Positions 37,110 to 48,431 of a stretch of 48,695 nucleotides of DNA are shown here, in pieces. The notes under the pieces were generated by a model. That model saw only the letters and a program-made list of their open reading frames with translations. It searched no databases and was not told the DNA's origin. Both the position numbers and the translations under genes were made by a program. The stretch is taken from sequence record SRR31156797_7961; one strand, written 5' to 3'. The stretch's first letter is position 1, and every line of letters begins with the position of its first letter.

Positions 37110-37868
37110 ATGACGAGCTGCAAGCTGCTGGTTTATTACCAAAACGATTTTCAAATTTTTTCCGGATCAATTACTCAGGAATCTCCTCTTACAGTCCAGA
37201 TAAGCGATTTCAGCGCAGAGGATTACATCTGCACCAAGCTGAAATGGTATGATGATCTTGTTACTAATTACGCAGAAGTTGAAATAACTAATATTGACGG
37301 TGATTTACTTACAATGAGTATCTCATCTGATGTATCTAAATCTGAAGACAGCACACACTTTATTGAGTTTGTTGATTATTTCGAAGCGACTAAAATCACT
37401 CCAGAAAACTCAGGCGAACTGAAATATCGTGTTGATAAGATAAATACCCGGTTCAGAAGCTCTCTGACTAATCAGATAAAGAAGATGCTTACCGACGAAA
37501 CACTTACTAACCAGTATATGTTTAAGATGCTTATACAGCTTGATGAAAAGCTCGGCGAGCTACTAGACAACCTGAAAGAAGATGAACCCATTGCTGGAAT
37601 TCAAGATAGTAAAATGCTCAGCCTTGGCGGTTCAGGGCTATCTTTTGTGTATGAGGGTGATGTCTCTGTTGGTGATGAGATATACATCCAGTCGATGCCG
37701 AAAACCGGCTCAGGGCTTAACTTTGCCGCAATATGTAATGTAACTGATATAATTAAAGATAGAATAATTGAAGCAAGCTTCTCTTACATAGACGAAAGCA
37801 CCAAAGAGAGTGTCATACACCACATCTTTCAAAAGGAGAGGGAGCAGCTTAAAAGGAGCCGTGGCTAA
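37110..37868 (+). CDS. Degenerate PilZ-like domain protein
   Basis: LDEKLGELL helix, SLGGSGLSF, C-terminal ESVIHHIFQKEREQLK helix. Confidence 0.6.
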   Translation: MTSCKLLVYYQNDFQIFSGSITQESPLTVQISDFSAEDYICTKLKWYDDLVTNYAEVEITNIDGDLLTMSISSDVSKSEDSTHFIEFVDYFEATKITPENSGELKYRVDKINTRFRSSLTNQIKKMLTDETLTNQYMFKMLIQLDEKLGELLDNLKEDEPIAGIQDSKMLSLGGSGLSFVYEGDVSVGDEIYIQSMPKTGSGLNFAAICNVTDIIKDRIIEASFSYIDESTKESVIHHIFQKEREQLKRSRG

Positions 37869-38458
37869 TGGATCCTATGACTCTTATCGGTATAGCATTT
37901 TTGCTCATATGCGTACTTTTTATCTTTCTGCTTGTTGTGGTTTCCAAAATTAATAAATTCCACAGAAAAGTCGCAGACGTTAACCCGCAGGATCTTTATC
38001 CTTTTATGGAGGAGATGCGCGAACTTGTCATGGAGAGTGAACGTGTGGCTGATAAGCTCGAAGATGCTGTCAGACAGAAAGAGGAGATGCTCGAGGATCT
38101 CTCAGCGCTCGTTGATGAAAAACTTAAAAGATTCGAAATGATCGACGATATCCCTGATACTGAGATAGGGTATACCCCACCGGTAAAGGATGAGGAAGAT
38201 ATCTACGAATCACAGCATACATATAACCCTATTCCTCAAACACCAAAAGAGGCTGAACCTAGCGTTGAGCCTAAGATAGAGATTGATGATCTTGAGCTAG
38301 ACGATACACACTCCCCTCAAACTTTCGAAGAGCAGGGTATAAGTATTCGTGAACAGATAGCCGATATGATAGAGATAGGAATGGAAGACAGCGAGATTGC
38401 TAAGCAGCTCGGTGTATCCGTTACAGAAGTACAGATAGTAAAGAGAATGGATATCTGA
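37868..38458 (+). CDS. Membrane-anchored coiled-coil protein with C-terminal HTH-like motif (DUF2802/SwrB-like architecture)
   Basis: N-terminal TM, coiled coil, acidic linker, GMEDSEIAKQLGVSVTEVQIV. Confidence 0.7.
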   Translation: MDPMTLIGIAFLLICVLFIFLLVVVSKINKFHRKVADVNPQDLYPFMEEMRELVMESERVADKLEDAVRQKEEMLEDLSALVDEKLKRFEMIDDIPDTEIGYTPPVKDEEDIYESQHTYNPIPQTPKEAEPSVEPKIEIDDLELDDTHSPQTFEEQGISIREQIADMIEIGMEDSEIAKQLGVSVTEVQIVKRMDI

Positions 38459-38459
38459 T

Positions 38460-39584
38460 ATGAACATCTTCTGGCCGGAAGGCCTGAAACAGCTTGCAGA
38501 TAAGGGTGAAATTAGCTTTAAAGACGGCGAACGCCTTAATCTGAATGTTGTGCGCAAGATGAACAACGGCATGTATCTTATCAACTTGAAAGGTAAATCA
38601 TTCACAGCTCAACTTGAAACAGAGCCGCAGGGGAAAACTGTCCGTGCAGAAGTTATCAAAACTGAAAACGGAACCCTTCAGCTAAAAATTATTCCAAAAG
38701 CTGAAAACAGCTCCAACCCTATCCAGGTCACTACTACAACTACTCAGTCCGGTAAGCAACAGCTAAATTTTCAGCTCCCGCAGGGAACCATTGAAGCTAA
38801 ACCTGGTGAAAAGGTCGAAATTCAGATCCTTAAAACATTAGAGAACGGTAAAACCCTTATAGCTGTTAAAAATAACCTATTTGAAGTAAAAATGGAGCCT
38901 AGCCTCCTTAAGAATATATCAGCAGAAGTTATTAAAGCTGAAAACGGGTCTATAGAGCTTGTAGCTGATAAGATCCCACTTCAAAATGTAAACAGTAACT
39001 TTGTTAAGCAGGAAGTCGGAACTTTTGACCTCGCTAAACTTATGAAAGCTTTTGGAAAATTCCAACAGCTAGATATGAAGTCCCTCACACCGGAATCGCT
39101 TAAGACGGCCATCAAAAACTCCGGACTGTTTATGGAAAATAAGCTTCTGAACAATGAGAGCATGGCTGGTGATGAGAAAGCCCGTGCATATATGGGCTCT
39201 GATAACACCGCAAGGGAGGGGATAACAAGGATGCAGGTTGCAAACATGCTTCTCGCTGGCGGACTTCTCACTTTCCTTAAAACCGAAGATGAAGCTATAG
39301 ACGACACATACATGCGTATGAAAAAAGATGACAAAGGTAATAATACTCTGTATGTCTCCACAAGTTTCTCACAGCTTGGTGATACATTTATGATAATCAG
39401 ACGCCATAACAACTTTAATGATGTGATGGTCAAAACGGAAGCTGACATCTCTGAGAATCTAAAAAAAATAGAGATTGAAAACACACGCATACACTGGGTA
39501 AAATATAACCCGAAAGACCTTGAGACAATGGACGTTAAAAAAGATATCGTATTCAATATGGGAAATTTTGAGGTAATAATCTGA
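38460..39584 (+). CDS. FliK-like flagellar accessory protein with duplicated N-terminal beta domain
   Basis: SGLFMENKL motif, C-terminal FSQLGDTFMII resembling FliK_C; internal repeat. Confidence 0.55.
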   Translation: MNIFWPEGLKQLADKGEISFKDGERLNLNVVRKMNNGMYLINLKGKSFTAQLETEPQGKTVRAEVIKTENGTLQLKIIPKAENSSNPIQVTTTTTQSGKQQLNFQLPQGTIEAKPGEKVEIQILKTLENGKTLIAVKNNLFEVKMEPSLLKNISAEVIKAENGSIELVADKIPLQNVNSNFVKQEVGTFDLAKLMKAFGKFQQLDMKSLTPESLKTAIKNSGLFMENKLLNNESMAGDEKARAYMGSDNTAREGITRMQVANMLLAGGLLTFLKTEDEAIDDTYMRMKKDDKGNNTLYVSTSFSQLGDTFMIIRRHNNFNDVMVKTEADISENLKKIEIENTRIHWVKYNPKDLETMDVKKDIVFNMGNFEVII

Positions 39585-40815: not shown

Positions 40816-42510
40816 ATGTTTGGCAGTAGAAAACATACCGTTACCGTTACAAACAGCGGGCAGGTACTTGAAGTAAAAAATGGAACAAATCTCTATCAGC
40901 TCTTGAGAGAGAATGAACTTATAGAAAAAAAACTTTGTGACGGAAGTGGACAGTGCGGAAAATGCAAGGTTCAAGTTAAAGGTAACTCTGTCAACAAACC
41001 TAATAAAAAAGAGCGTTTGGTTCTTGCTGACCAATCACTCGATGCTGGTATGCGCCTAGCTTGCCAGTATGCTATTAAATCCAGCATTACTGTGGACACA
41101 CAGCAGGCTGCTAAATTCGAAAATATAAACCCCGGCATAGTTAGCCTTACTATTAAAAATAGCGACGGCGAAGTCGAAGAGAATGAATTCAAAAGTTTCC
41201 TCACCACAGACATGTTCATCAAAGAGGCGGAAGAGAGAGAGGAGACTAAGCTTGAAGAGATATTAGCTGACGATAATGAGCCTAAAGTAATAGAAGATTT
41301 CAGTGACGAAGTTATCGTGGACGACCTTGTTTACGATGAGCGTCCTATCGAAGAGATAACAGGCGGGCATCAGGAAACTATTGAGATTGTTAAGTATAAC
41401 AGCTCTGAGCAAGAGAGCGAATCATCCTCATTTAGTAATGACGGACTGCTTTTTATCCAGCAGCCTGATTCCATCCGTTATTACCACTTCAGCGCAGGGA
41501 TAGGCAATGTCGTTGATGACGGTGCTATCAAAACTGAGGAAAAACTAGAAAACATACTTGAGAGTCAACTGATTTCAGATTTTATACATAATAACCTTCA
41601 GGTTCAGGATATCGAAAGGGTGATAGTCATCCTTGATAAGCCATACTTTGAGGGTGATGTTATGTTCGACCTTGTTAAATATACATCTATGGAGCTTGGC
41701 GATCTGTTAGTTGAAGTTCTCCAGCCGAAGGAGAACCATAGAGACCTTGTACGCTTCATGCGCTTTGTGAACCAAACACCTGGCAAGAAGCTCCTTATAC
41801 CGCTTGATAACCTTGAGAAGGCACACTTTATGGATGATGGCGATCTGCACGATATGTCTGCCGGATTCATAGATTGCGACTCACTCTTTGGCATGAGCGA
41901 GTTTCAGGGTAAAAACCCTATCGTCTCAATAAGTAAAAACCTGCTGGAGACAACTGTTAAGGATGATTTTCATCAGCCGGACTCTATCTCTTTCACAGTA
42001 TTTTTCAGAACAGCATCGCTCCTTGTTAAAAATGGGATAGCTAATAAACATTTACAAATGTATGATAGGGCAGATGTTATGGACGATGTTCCGCTTGAGC
42101 TGACTGTTAAGCTGAGCACTAAGGATGGAGTTAAGAGGTTCAATATATACCGCAAGCAGGGAGTTGACCTTTTCATAGATCAGAATGCTCTCAACAGCCT
42201 GCATCAGTTAAGATCTTTCATACACTCGGTTATTACCTATACTGAGAAAAAGTTCGGGCATATTGATGATGTTGTTTTCTATACACTGACAGACAGTAAC
42301 ACCCTTGCTGATGATCTCATATCGCTTTCGGCTATACCTAAAAAGTATGAAAAGAAGGTTAAAACATTTTTCGGTGATCCGACAATGTTTGCTGTGCAGT
42401 TCTTTCAGGAGAAAAATATCGGGACTTATTTTGAAAAACGTTTCGGTGAGCAGAATATAATCGATCTGATGAAAGATGAGTTATTCATAGAAGCCCAACG
42501 CCAAAGCTAG
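40816..42510 (+). CDS. 2Fe-2S ferredoxin-domain protein with degenerate RACo/ASKHA-like body
   Basis: CDGSGQCGKC...RLACQ 2Fe-2S motif; C-terminal pattern resembling RACo. Confidence 0.75.
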   Translation: MFGSRKHTVTVTNSGQVLEVKNGTNLYQLLRENELIEKKLCDGSGQCGKCKVQVKGNSVNKPNKKERLVLADQSLDAGMRLACQYAIKSSITVDTQQAAKFENINPGIVSLTIKNSDGEVEENEFKSFLTTDMFIKEAEEREETKLEEILADDNEPKVIEDFSDEVIVDDLVYDERPIEEITGGHQETIEIVKYNSSEQESESSSFSNDGLLFIQQPDSIRYYHFSAGIGNVVDDGAIKTEEKLENILESQLISDFIHNNLQVQDIERVIVILDKPYFEGDVMFDLVKYTSMELGDLLVEVLQPKENHRDLVRFMRFVNQTPGKKLLIPLDNLEKAHFMDDGDLHDMSAGFIDCDSLFGMSEFQGKNPIVSISKNLLETTVKDDFHQPDSISFTVFFRTASLLVKNGIANKHLQMYDRADVMDDVPLELTVKLSTKDGVKRFNIYRKQGVDLFIDQNALNSLHQLRSFIHSVITYTEKKFGHIDDVVFYTLTDSNTLADDLISLSAIPKKYEKKVKTFFGDPTMFAVQFFQEKNIGTYFEKRFGEQNIIDLMKDELFIEAQRQS

Positions 42511-42658: not shown

Positions 42659-43024
42659 CTAGTCGCCGACTAGTTGGTTGAGGGCATTTTCAAGATCAGC
42701 CGCACGAACAGGCTTATTAAGGTACTGGATAGCACCGTGATCAGATGTTTGCTTGTAGGATTTGTAAGATCCGAAAGCTGTAATGACTATCTTATTTGAA
42801 GTGTTACCTTCTTCATCTAGCTTTTCAATAAACTCTACACCGTTCATTTTAGGCATGTGCAAATCAGTAATGATTATGTCGTAATCGATAGCAGTCGCTT
42901 TTGCCAGCCCTTCAACACCATCAGCGGCCATATCAACTTCGTGCCCGCCCATTTTAAGTATTTCAGCGTAGCCTACTCTTGTATGTTCTTCGTCATCAAC
43001 GACTAATATCTTATATTCCTGCAT
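42659..43024 (-). CDS. Single-domain response regulator (REC only)
   Basis: LVVDDE, ITDLHMPKMNG, ITAFG, YLNKPV; starts 2 nt after hfq-like stop. Confidence 0.92.
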   Translation of the reverse strand: MQEYKILVVDDEEHTRVGYAEILKMGGHEVDMAADGVEGLAKATAIDYDIIITDLHMPKMNGVEFIEKLDEEGNTSNKIVITAFGSYKSYKQTSDHGAIQYLNKPVRAADLENALNQLVGD

Positions 43025-43026
43025 CT

Positions 43027-43542
43027 CTATCTCTCATTTTCGTATTTAATAATCTCGCCGTGCTGATAAATAGGGAATACCGTAGAAACAGTATTTTTAT
43101 ATACCAACTGCTGTCTCCCTTCGAACGCTGTAAGGAGGGTGTAGTTATCAAAACCTATAAGGCTTCCTCTGATCTTTACGCCATTAATTAGGAAGCTAAT
43201 TATCGGCGACCTAGACTTACGCACTTCGTTTAGAAATATATCCTGCATAGGCGGACGTGAGTGTCTCGGCTGTCTTCCCTGATGGGCGTTATAGTATATC
43301 TTTGAAATAAAGTCTATATCTACCACAGTTTTAGCTGCTGCTACAGTAGCGATATCATTTTTATTAAGCAGTATCTTCATCTCTGCATCATCAATTATTA
43401 TATGATACTGATCAAAATCTTCCACGCGACCTCTGAACCTCTCCTTATTTTTCATAATGAACATAAGGGGGATCTTTTTTGTACGTGCATTATGCATAAA
43501 AACAAATTCTATCTGCGCATGAAATGTTGATGTGTTATCCAT
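43027..43542 (-). CDS. hfq: Tandem (double Sm-domain) Hfq-like RNA chaperone
   Basis: C-domain QDIFLNEVRK...FLINGVKIRG..GFDNY...QQLVYKNTVSTVFP; N-domain a degenerate copy; ATG 43542 with AGGA SD preferred over TTG 43548. Confidence 0.88.
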   Translation of the reverse strand: MDNTSTFHAQIEFVFMHNARTKKIPLMFIMKNKERFRGRVEDFDQYHIIIDDAEMKILLNKNDIATVAAAKTVVDIDFISKIYYNAHQGRQPRHSRPPMQDIFLNEVRKSRSPIISFLINGVKIRGSLIGFDNYTLLTAFEGRQQLVYKNTVSTVFPIYQHGEIIKYENER

Positions 43543-43934
43543 AATCAAGTTTCCTAATAATAGTGCTACTATGTAGCTGTTTAATTGATTATAAAGTGTT
43601 TAATGCTGTTGACAAGTTTTAATTTTGTCCACGGATGTTTAGTGCCAATTTAACCTGTTAGTATTATTTGTTTAAAATGTTAATTCTTCAGTGTTAAATT
43701 TCAACATTTTAATATTCTTTTAATTGCTTAATAAATTTATAAAAAAATCGTTCTCAACAATTTCAAGATACCCTATTACTACTACAACTAACTTTATAAT
43801 ATAATACTAATATTTACACTCATCAAATAGAGTAAATATCATTGACATAACTGATCAAAATTGCTTGTAAACAATAAATAAATAGCCTATTATTAATAAA
43901 GCTATATTTATAATATTATTTATAAGAGGTCACT
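43535..43934. other. Probable chromosomal replication origin (oriC)
   Basis: Very AT-rich; DnaA-box-like 9-mers TTATCCATA 43535, TGTTGACAA 43607, TTGTCCACG 43625, TTCTCAACA 43751; DnaA-trio run CTATTACTACTACAACTA 43773-43790; directly upstream of dnaN. Confidence 0.8.
43865..43893 (+). promoter_or_regulatory. Possible sigma70 promoter of dnaN operon
   Basis: TTGTAA-17 nt-TATTAT; chance matches are likely in such AT-rich DNA. Confidence 0.35.
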
Positions 43935-45040
43935 ATGCGTTTTAAGGCCGTAAAAGATGAGATATATCCATTCATACAATTTGCTAACAGTTTCACAAGC
44001 CCTAAGAATCTGAATACTGTTTTGCAAAATATTCTTATTGATGCAGAGAGCGATGGTATCACACTTAGGTCCACTGACATGCAGGTTGGTTTTTCAGGTA
44101 AGGTTGAAGTCAATGTCGAAGAGACAGGAACTGCAACTGTATCAGGAAAGAAACTATTAGATATTATAAAAGAAATACCTGACGGATCTGTTATAGATTT
44201 CTCTTTCGACGGCTCTAAGATCAATATAGATTCAGGAAAATCAAATTTTAAGCTCTCTACTATCAGCCATGAAATATTTCCTACTATGGCTGAGATTACT
44301 CCTGAATACTACCTTAAGATCAAATCTAATCTCGTTTATGATCTCCTTAAGAAGACCAGCTTCTGTATCTCAACTGATGCATCTAAGATAGAATATACTG
44401 GCTCTCATATGGCTGTTTACGGCGATAAGCTCGAGATATCTGCTGCTGACTTTCAGAGAATAGCTACTAGCAGCATCTCTTTTGACGAAGAATACTCTAA
44501 TGAATTTATGATCAATATCCCTCGTAAGACTGTTATGGAACTTATGAAAATACTTGATCAGGCTGAATATATAGAAATAGAGACTGACAGAAAGCAGATT
44601 GTTTTTACAATCGGTAATGTAAAAATATTCAGTAAGCTTATAGAAAAATATATTAAGAGCATAACTAAACTGTTCACCAATGAAATGCCTCTGCAAGCTA
44701 AGCTTAACAGGGCAGAATTCCTTGATGTTATTAAGAGAGTATCTGCTATCACAAGTGAAGTCACTCACGGCGTTGTTCTCTCATTTAAGCCAGGAACACT
44801 TACAGTTTACTCACTCGAAACAGAATATGGTACTGGTAATGAATCTATTGATGATTTCGAATATAACGGCGAACCGCTTGATATTATCTTTAATGCTAAG
44901 CATGTCGCTGAAATGATTTCAAATATAGACTCTGATTACTTCCACCTCAACATGGTCGGTGAAAGAAACCCTGCAGTAATTTTACCTGAAAGTGGTGAGT
45001 ATAAATATCTTGTAGTTCCTATCTCCATTAACAGGTACTA

Positions 45041-45041
<1 letters not shown>
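43935..45041 (+). CDS. dnaN: DNA polymerase III beta sliding clamp
   Basis: 368 aa, VLQNILI, STDMQ, IPRKTVMEL, IIFNAKH, C-terminal YLVVP; precedes recF-gyrB. Confidence 0.93.

Positions 45042-48431
<3,390 letters not shown>

Follow-up and report, generated by a model that had tools for sequence, protein, structure and literature searches.

A tandem-domain Hfq linked to a response regulator gene in the Deferribacterales

The mechanism of Hfq, the model RNA chaperone of bacteria, has been worked out for an assembly of six identical subunits. Two Sm-like domains on one chain have been described for ZMO0347 of Z. mobilis and in six other Sphingomonadales, and the question of whether three ZMO0347-type proteins make the ring has already been raised (PMC2877685). 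Here we describe a tandem Hfq whose gene (43027..43542, minus strand; 171 codons plus a stop) lies in a stretch of 48,695 nucleotides from sequence record SRR31156797_7961, referred to as the window. The window is chromosomal DNA from a Deferribacterales member. A first-pass annotation had pointed out that tandem-Sm Hfqs exist in Zymomonas, in agreement with the published record for Zymomonas and other Sphingomonadales (PMC2877685). While the two-domain architecture of Hfq is already known, the Deferribacterales lineage is distinct and strongly asymmetric, and the phosphorylatable single-domain response regulator linked to it is a new observation. In the literature searched, we found no description of the derived-domain-first order, the loss of His57 from both domains, the conserved linker and tail, or the pairing with a receiver protein; the papers that bore on the subject were the one on Zymomonas and a comparative one on Burkholderia.

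The Sphingomonadales-type tandem Hfqs resemble the Deferribacterales protein in having two Hfq domains per chain of about 145-200 residues. In these other tandem Hfqs both domains are near-canonical (47-135 bits each), most of them show a recognisable QD and YKH (or YKQ/FKH) in each half, and the more canonical domain often comes first, whereas the Deferribacterales protein has a strongly derived N-terminal domain and carries its canonical domain second. The protein shares the Sm fold with canonical Hfq (E. coli, Caulobacter crescentus 6gwk, Bacillus subtilis 3hsb), and its C-terminal domain is 35-50% identical to solved chains, the figure for Caulobacter Hfq 6gwk being 41-50%. Canonical Hfq differs in that it has a variable, disordered C-terminus where the tandem Hfq has a conserved, structured-looking linker and tail, and in that it carries His57, which is absent from the Deferribacterales family; the tandem hfq gene, moreover, is not next to miaA or hflX. 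Burkholderia Hfq2 is a longer second Hfq-like protein found beside canonical Hfq, and it consists of one Sm domain and a long glycine-rich disordered C-terminus of 175-216 aa (PMC7074383, which treats it alongside the two Hfq-like proteins of Deferribacteraceae), whereas the tandem Hfq has a second Sm domain. The tandem Hfq is like the eukaryotic Sm/Lsm hetero-heptamers and the archaeal Sm paralogues in that ring slots would be filled by diverged Sm domains with non-equivalent RNA sites. The eukaryotic and archaeal rings are made of separate gene products and have seven members, whereas the tandem Hfq has fused domains and would offer six positions with three-fold symmetry. A model of duplication and subfunctionalisation has been put forward for Sm paralogues (PMC3710371), and the available part of that paper contains nothing on tandem Hfq.

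Two Hfq domains in one Deferribacterales protein

The 171-residue product of the tandem hfq open reading frame is exactly the protein quoted in the first-pass annotation. The longest frame starts with a TTG at position 43548, two codons upstream of the ATG at 43542, and the ATG is the likelier start because a Shine-Dalgarno-like AGGAA (43551..43555, minus strand), read from the sequence, lies 8 nt before it. All parts of the gene are on the minus strand. The derived N-terminal Sm/Hfq domain (N domain) comprises residues 9-69 (43336..43518) and the near-canonical C-terminal Hfq domain (C domain) residues 98-158 (43069..43251). Between them lies a conserved linker, residues 70-97 (43252..43335), in which a D-I-D-F-I-S-K-I-Y-Y motif is followed by a basic H-Q-G-R-Q-P-R-H-S-R-P stretch, and the protein ends in a conserved tail, residues 159-171 (43030..43068; Y-Q-x-G-E-I-I-K-Y-x-x-E-R). 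The basic linker that had been noted on first inspection, HQGRQPRHSRPP, is located at residues 87-98.

Both halves of the protein are recognized separately as Hfq domains. PF17209, which has a gathering cut-off of 27 bits, matches the whole protein at 115.3 bits, residues 99-171 alone at 83.2 bits (E 9.6e-24) and residues 1-79 alone at 38.3 bits (E 1.1e-9), the last match covering profile positions 5-63 of 64. TIGR02383 (cut-off 61.7) is matched by the whole protein at 90.6 bits and by the C half at 67.2, and the N half, at 27.8 bits, falls below it; the per-half test that the first-pass annotation had proposed is thus passed by both halves with PF17209 and by the C half with TIGR02383. With NF001602 (cut-off 95) the whole protein scores 93.1 bits, just under the cut-off, and the N half 28.0, below it. 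NF010691 (PRK14091), the profile for two-domain Hfq, has a cut-off of 270 bits; the tandem Hfq scores 80 bits and matches with its C domain only, the best stretch being residues 96-159 on profile positions 20-83 of 176. The two halves can be aligned with each other without gaps (26% identity over 54 residues, E 1e-7).

The tandem Hfq is conserved across the Deferribacterales. A word-indexed protein search returned 27 homologues of 142-174 residues with 59-95% identity, and those from named sources (Deferribacter, Flexistipes, Deferribacteres) are annotated as 'RNA chaperone Hfq' or 'host factor-I protein'. Genomic loci of about 12 kb per genome were compared for 20 Deferribacterales and three Bacillota hfq genes (L001-L023). 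Orthologues are present in all 20 Deferribacterales genomes at 42-95% protein identity, the nearest being from Denitrovibrio sp. and Deferribacterales metagenome-assembled genomes (MAGs; 93-95%), followed by Seleniivibrio (86%), Deferribacter (66-67%), Calditerrivibrio (61%) and the Deferribacterales MAG UBA4806 (42%). In a six-frame scan, every one of these 20 loci has a single uninterrupted open reading frame with two Hfq-domain matches, so the two-domain form is native in the Deferribacterales and not the result of an assembly fusion, a possibility raised in the first-pass annotation together with that of single-domain orthologues.

Averaged over pairs of 16 orthologues, identity rises from 71% in the N domain and 72% in the linker to 80% in the C domain, and it is highest, at 86%, in the last 13 residues. 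The C-terminal tail is the most conserved part of the protein, with Q160, I164 and I165 invariant; in the linker P97 is likewise invariant, and conservation reaches 90% or more at D75, I79, S80, K81, Y83, Y84, G89, H94 and R96. The linker motif D-I-D-F-I-S-K-I-Y-Y and the tail motif G-E-I-I-K-Y are thus as conserved as the Sm domains or more so (72% and 86%). In the N half, 15 positions do not vary in a set of 18 sequences. Values of dN across orthologues are 0.01-0.17, and dS is saturated in most pairs; omega, computable for a few pairs only, is 0.007-0.07 for the N domain and 0.003-0.04 for the C domain. The N domain is under strong purifying selection, derived and not decaying, and the term degenerate would apply to it only in comparison with the Hfq consensus.

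The full-length AlphaFold2 model, built from a 29-row family alignment, has a mean predicted local distance difference test score (pLDDT) of 83 and a predicted template modelling score (pTM) of 0.78. A pattern of one helix and five strands occurs twice in it, offset by exactly 88 residues: helix 10-21 and strands 25-30, 35-43, 47-52, 55-60 and 64-69 in the N domain, and helix 99-110 and strands 113-118, 123-131, 135-140, 143-148 and 152-157 in the C domain. The N domain is modelled with a pLDDT of 91-96 over residues 11-60, and with a pLDDT of 84 when it is modelled alone from 18 sequences. In Foldseek comparisons, the N domain taken by itself aligns with solved Hfq chains at TM scores of 0.81-0.92 (target-normalised) and root-mean-square deviations (rmsd) of 0.7-1.3 A; its best matches in the Protein Data Bank (PDB) include Caulobacter 6gwk_M (TM 0.90, rmsd 1.1 A, 25% identity) and E. 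coli 1hk9_B (TM 0.91), along with Hfq from Listeria, Aquifex and Neisseria. The full model matches Hfq chains via its C domain at 31-50% identity. With PF17209 and the N-domain model agreeing, the predicted Sm fold of the N half answers the concern that this half might lack one, and the original description of a protein of about 171 aa with two Hfq-like units stands. The helix predicted in the linker at residues 76-86 is of low confidence (pLDDT 55-63), as is the C-terminal tail.

Assembly was modelled with ESMFold2 as three copies with the family alignment, in three runs and with three controls. The scores are 0.67, 0.69 and 0.55 (median 0.67), and the best of the three controls scores 0.00; contact agreement among the runs is at least 96% and the partner pLDDT at least 76. 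In the predicted contacts, strand 5 of the C domain (152-157) lies on strand 4 (55-60) of the N domain of the next chain, the strand 4/strand 5 pairing of canonical Hfq rings. The contacting ranges are C-domain residues 98-103, 117-121 and 149-157 and next-chain N-domain residues 30-36, 42-49 and 54-64, with C-domain 98-103 and 117-121 facing N-domain 30-36 and 42-49. The best residue pairs at this C-to-N' interface have an expected error of 1.2-2.2 A, and there are 98-106 confident contacts. The scored copy uses one and the same interface on both sides, and tail residues 160 and 164 touch the neighbouring chain. The N-domain interface residues N32, E34, F36, D44, Y46, K56 and D63 are at least 90% conserved, as ring-building would require. 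Since each chain contributes two Sm domains, three chains instead of six would close a ring, and the modelled contacts fit a closed three-chain ring with alternating N and C domains.

RNA-contact residues and origin of the two domains

The RNA-binding surfaces of Hfq have been mapped to individual residues. Uridine is bound in a proximal pocket formed by Gln8, Phe42, Lys56 and His57; Tyr25 belongs to the second distal adenine site; and Asn13, Arg16, Arg17, Ser38 and Phe39 make up the lateral rim pocket (PMC5379935). His57 is well conserved in Hfq and important for recognition of RNA 3' ends (PMC5379935). Both halves of the tandem protein were aligned with E. coli Hfq from NC_000913.3, whose numbering is used here for single-letter positions unless the protein's own numbering is stated. 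The C domain retains Q8, D9, N13, R16, G29, K31, F39, D40, Y55 and K56, has a Lys at position 17, and shows the changes Y25 to F, F42 to Y and H57 to N. In its own numbering, Q100-D101 corresponds to Q8-D9, the N-G-V-K sequence to N28-K31, F131-D132 to F39-D40, F117 to Y25, and Y148-K149-N150 to Y55-K56-H57. The features read by eye in the first-pass annotation (QD, NG.K and FD kept, F for Y25 and YKN for YKH) are all present in this alignment.

The N domain lacks Q8, D9, Y25, G29, Y55 and H57 and retains R16, F39-D40, an aromatic residue (Y) at position 42, and K56. In its own numbering, E12-F13 stands in place of QD, N32-K33 in place of NG and N60-K61-N62 in place of YKH, so the reported loss of these three motifs holds. 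These features extend through the family, in which the N domain has a near-invariant Glu at position 8, His or Gln at 13, Ile at 25, R16 in most members and an invariant Lys56, as well as a conserved N-K-E-R-F-R-G where Hfq has N-G-I-K-L-Q-G. Across the family the C domain has F or Y at position 25 and N, S, T or Q at 57, the N domain has N, R, K, Q or S at 57, and no domain carries His57. Measured against the proximal pocket of Gln8, Phe or Tyr42, Lys56 and His57, the C domain has three of the four residues (Q, Y, K, N) and the N domain two of the four (E, Y, K, N). The Hfq fold tolerates change at position 57, given that engineered Pseudomonas H57T and H57A Hfqs are among the PDB matches (3inz, 3m4g). 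Judged from the residue changes only, RNA or DNA specificity may be altered, as the first-pass annotation had suggested.

The origin of the two domains was examined by comparing them with other Hfq domains. An exhaustive search of 1.84 billion representatives gave 2049 matches at E <= 0.001, and among the best 150 of these, two proteins are collinear with both domains, P0029 (43% identity) and P0047 (33%), whose N domains are too diverged for Pfam to report a separate stretch. Both proteins retain the C-domain start P-P-M/I-Q-D-I-F-L-N-E and the tail I-I-K-Y/F, and P0029 resembles the locus from Deferribacterales UBA4806 (L020). Of 181 proteins examined, 53 have two Hfq-domain matches; 30 of the 53 belong to the Deferribacterales family, and the remaining 23 are other tandem Hfqs, which include eight truncated or frameshifted ones. 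NF010691 spans both domains of the other tandem Hfqs at 118-241 bits (240.6 for P0036 and 213.4 for P0030), and none of the 11 tested reaches 270. In the ESM Atlas, clusters of 150-165-residue Hfq proteins are commonest in Nitrospirota and Pseudomonadota. A sequence search of the PDB did not match a two-domain Hfq: all 35 matched chains are 63-114 residues long and align in one stretch, with the C domain only.

A careful tree was built from 88 domains and 67 columns; it took in 11 family members out of 30, the 15 other tandem Hfqs that are complete and, from 61 eligible single-domain proteins, the first 36. The N domains of the family group in one clade (98/98), whose stem measures 1.78 changes per column, and this clade shares one side of a branch (91/85) with the family C domains, the 66 other Hfq domains being on the opposite side. 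No other tandem Hfq groups with the Deferribacterales family in this tree. At several places the other tandem Hfqs pair the N with the C domain of the same protein (P0040, 92/97; P0050, 98/89), and the two domains of P0059 pair likewise in a quick tree (SH-aLRT 94). The tree is consistent with an internal duplication ancestral to the Deferribacterales family and with independent duplications elsewhere.

Gene neighbourhood and the linked response regulator

Directly downstream of the tandem hfq, and starting 2 nt past its stop codon, is a gene for a single-domain response regulator of 121 aa that consists of a receiver domain only (42659..43024, minus strand). Its PF00072 match is 86.4 bits against a cut-off of 30.2; among NCBIfam models, 88 families matched it weakly and none came near its own cut-off, so no specific family was found. 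Residues D10, D11, D54, T82 and K104 are invariant in 14 aligned sequences, and we take them to be the Asp-Asp pair (D10/D11), the phospho-acceptor Asp (D54) and the conserved Thr (T82) and Lys (K104) of receiver domains. An orthologue of the regulator follows hfq directly in all 20 Deferribacterales loci and in none of the three Bacillota hfq loci. The genes upstream of hfq vary. They are a divergent dnaN-recF-gyrB group in 11 of the 20 Deferribacterales loci, and an M17 peptidase, YceD, MoeA, an ArsR-type regulator, a hydrogenase subunit or a cytochrome c peroxidase in six other loci inspected. Since the upstream neighbours differ and the regulator is constant, hfq and the regulator gene form a conserved unit, and the two are likely co-transcribed. 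Through co-transcription with a phosphorylatable response regulator, the action of the tandem Hfq is probably tied to a two-component signal.

The typical, though not defining, context of hfq is miaA-hfq-hflX. In the Bacillota loci miaA is directly upstream of hfq in two of three cases, as it is in E. coli; a MiaA match is absent from the window and, within 6 kb, from all 20 Deferribacterales loci. The sole trace of the classical neighbourhood in the 20 loci is an HflX homologue in one Deferribacteraceae MAG (L013, 791-1723, minus strand), which is 44% identical to E. coli HflX and is encoded on the other strand, some 2.7 kb upstream of the tandem hfq.

Other features of the window are recorded as observations in their own right. 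Convergent with the response regulator gene is a gene for a 564-aa protein (40816-42510, plus strand) that carries a 2Fe-2S ferredoxin domain at its N-terminus and has a long C-terminal part without a Pfam family. It recurs next to the hfq-regulator pair in 15 of the 20 loci, one of these being a distant partial match, and the protein bears a weak resemblance to the N-terminus of the corrinoid activation protein AcsV (51.5 bits, where the cut-off is 800). On the other side, an AT-rich spacer of 386 bp (43549-43934) separates hfq from the divergent dnaN-recF-gyrB genes (43935-48431), and no dnaA precedes dnaN; the same arrangement recurs in 11 of the 20 Deferribacterales loci. A replication origin beside dnaN was considered and rejected for want of evidence, as DnaA-box-like 9-mers show no enrichment in the window (15 against 11.9 expected) and only one of them is at the start of the gene, near the spacer. 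Three consecutive open reading frames of 252, 196 and 374 aa (37110-39584, plus strand) have no Pfam family at E 1e-5, and the 374-aa frame has no NCBIfam match; they sit between a chemotaxis cluster and the gene for an MscS-type channel. The flagellar export and chemotaxis cluster itself (13469-36795) encodes FapA, a GAF histidine kinase, FliR, FlhB, FlhA, FlhF, a MinD-like ATPase, a FliA-type sigma factor, CheB, FliM, FliN, CheY, a CheZ-like protein, a CheA-CheW-receiver fusion and CheR, as well as a SpoIIE-type phosphatase with a STAS-domain partner and a HEAT-repeat protein. No Rfam family matches anywhere in the window at gathering thresholds.

A proposed alternating ring and its alternatives

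The explanation that we favour, and to which we assign a probability of roughly 60% as a whole, is that the protein is a two-domain RNA-binding Hfq which arose by ancestral internal duplication, forms an alternating ring of three chains and is linked to the response regulator. The analysis shows the two domains with their predicted folds, conservation and residue pattern, and the linkage of the genes; the trimeric ring, the binding of RNA, the co-transcription and a functional tie to the regulator are inferred. In this model the two fused Sm domains would have arisen through internal duplication in the ancestor of the Deferribacterales family. Three chains would join head to tail into a closed ring of six domains with three-fold symmetry, in which N and C domains alternate; strand 5 of each C domain would pair with strand 4 of the N domain of the next chain, and within one chain strand 5 of the N domain should pair with strand 4 of the C domain. 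The three C domains would provide the canonical surfaces, that is, the proximal pocket with Q8 and K56, the rim with N13, R16 and K17, and the distal face with G29, K31 and F at position 25. The three N domains would keep the ring-building residues F39-D40, the aromatic residue at 42 and K56, and would carry a near-invariant Glu in place of Q8, Ile in place of Y25 and the conserved N-K-E-R-F-R-G in place of the distal N-G-I-K loop. Each face of such a ring would show three canonical and three derived sites, with no His57. Lacking any His57, such a ring should recognise small RNA (sRNA) 3' ends differently from model Hfqs.

Several points weigh against this explanation. The three-copy result may reflect only likeness to a known interface, since Hfq hexamers have been solved many times (35 distinct chains matched), and the mark used for scoring, which was reached by 20 of 30 proteins solved as one-chain pairs and by one of 23 solved as single chains, was calibrated on two-copy runs and other alignments. 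The three-chain pseudo-hexamer suggested in the first-pass annotation consequently gains a modelled strand 4/strand 5 interface, at 0.67 against 0.00 for the best control, that may owe its pass to the solved hexamers. We infer ring closure and the packing of N against C within a chain from the repeated interface and the pTM of 0.78. The linker and tail are strongly conserved yet modelled with low confidence, so the explanation would account for part of the mechanism only. The support of 91/85 for the duplication branch is not strong, with the bootstrap unsettled, few columns and long branches joining, as the tool itself warned. With His57 missing from both domains, canonical sRNA binding is not to be assumed, and the presence of a second Hfq-like protein in four species of Deferribacteraceae (PMC7074383) means that the tandem Hfq may not be the general chaperone of the cell. 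The candidate promoter of the hfq-regulator pair (43588..43615, minus strand; TTGTCA, 16 nt and TATAAT, matching at 11 of 12 positions) comes from a consensus scan only, in which the region has 8 promoter-like sites against 7.7 in shuffles and thus no enrichment.

We lean toward a specialised role for the tandem Hfq because of its non-canonical gene context and its linked regulator. It is conceivable, though on balance doubtful, that it is a specialised paralogue in cells where a separate single-domain Hfq serves as the general chaperone, and that the tandem ring and its regulator make up a dedicated module under signal control, in which the phosphorylated regulator docks on the remodelled surface of the N domain and switches RNA binding or release. 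Such a division of labour would suit the four Deferribacteraceae species that encode two distinct Hfq-like proteins (PMC7074383), a gene lying outside the miaA-hfq-hflX context with miaA missing from the window and from within 6 kb of hfq in all 20 loci, a regulator that is linked in all 20 loci with its phospho-acceptor site intact, and the conserved, non-canonical N-K-E-R-F-R-G surface motif of the N domain. The second Hfq itself did not emerge, as a six-frame scan of the window and of the 23 loci, which cover only about 12 kb per genome, turned up no additional Hfq domain, and no Deferribacteraceae entry was found in the supplement of PMC7074383; the genome scan relied on peptide patterns specific to the family, with which a divergent paralogue would have been missed. 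The same three unnamed proteins of 74-78 aa came from a search for shorter proteins and from one with the C domain only, and they were rejected as candidates for the sought paralogue, being closest, among the loci compared, to the Bacillota loci L021-L022. The name given by NCBI to the tandem protein is simply 'RNA chaperone Hfq', and adjacency of the genes is weak evidence for a physical interaction between Hfq and the regulator. A more specific form of regulation, in which the tandem Hfq is a phosphorylation-gated RNA chaperone and the phosphorylated regulator docks on a three-fold surface formed by the N-K-E-R-F-R-G loop, the linker and the tail to open or block the RNA faces, seems unlikely; if true, the gated ring would be a direct protein-level link of two-component signalling to Hfq-based riboregulation, and no such direct link was found in the literature searched.

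Other arrangements of the chains would dispense with the alternation of domains. Six chains could form two stacked homotypic rings, one of six N and one of six C domains connected by the 28-residue linkers, or could assemble into open fibres. Hfq rings are known to stack in crystals, with 24 chains per entry in 6gwk, the linker is long and modelled at low confidence, and the side-by-side packing of N and C within a chain is not seen among the model contacts. We nevertheless regard homotypic rings or fibres as quite improbable, as the confident interface of the three-copy model is heterotypic, from C to N', the monomer reaches a pTM of 0.78 despite about 40 poorly modelled residues, which argues for a fixed arrangement of N and C, and the interface residues of the N domain are highly conserved. 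It is also possible to view the N half as a decaying relic, or as an artefact of annotation or assembly, with the C domain alone working as an ordinary hexamer. The N half does score far lower than the C half on Hfq profiles (14-30 against 77-95 bits in the Deferribacterales-type members P0001-P0028), and Pfam does not detect it as a separate stretch in P0029 and P0047. The two-domain frame is, however, uninterrupted in 20 of 20 genomes, the N domain has 71% mean identity with low dN against saturated dS and 15 invariant positions among 18 sequences, and its fold is confidently predicted, which together make a relic or artefact very hard to credit.

If the favoured explanation of an alternating three-chain ring is correct, a natural ring with two alternating, diverged types of subunit would show which of the sites repeated six-fold in Hfq are needed, and the tandem Hfq would be a bacterial parallel to the diversification of eukaryotic Sm rings. 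Any structure of the tandem Hfq would be the first of its architecture among the PDB chains searched by sequence. The practical value is modest, as these are environmental anaerobes, and the interest is mainly structural and evolutionary. For the Deferribacterales themselves, a response regulator gene accompanies the tandem hfq in 20 of 20 genomes, which suggests a so far undescribed regulatory input to Hfq.

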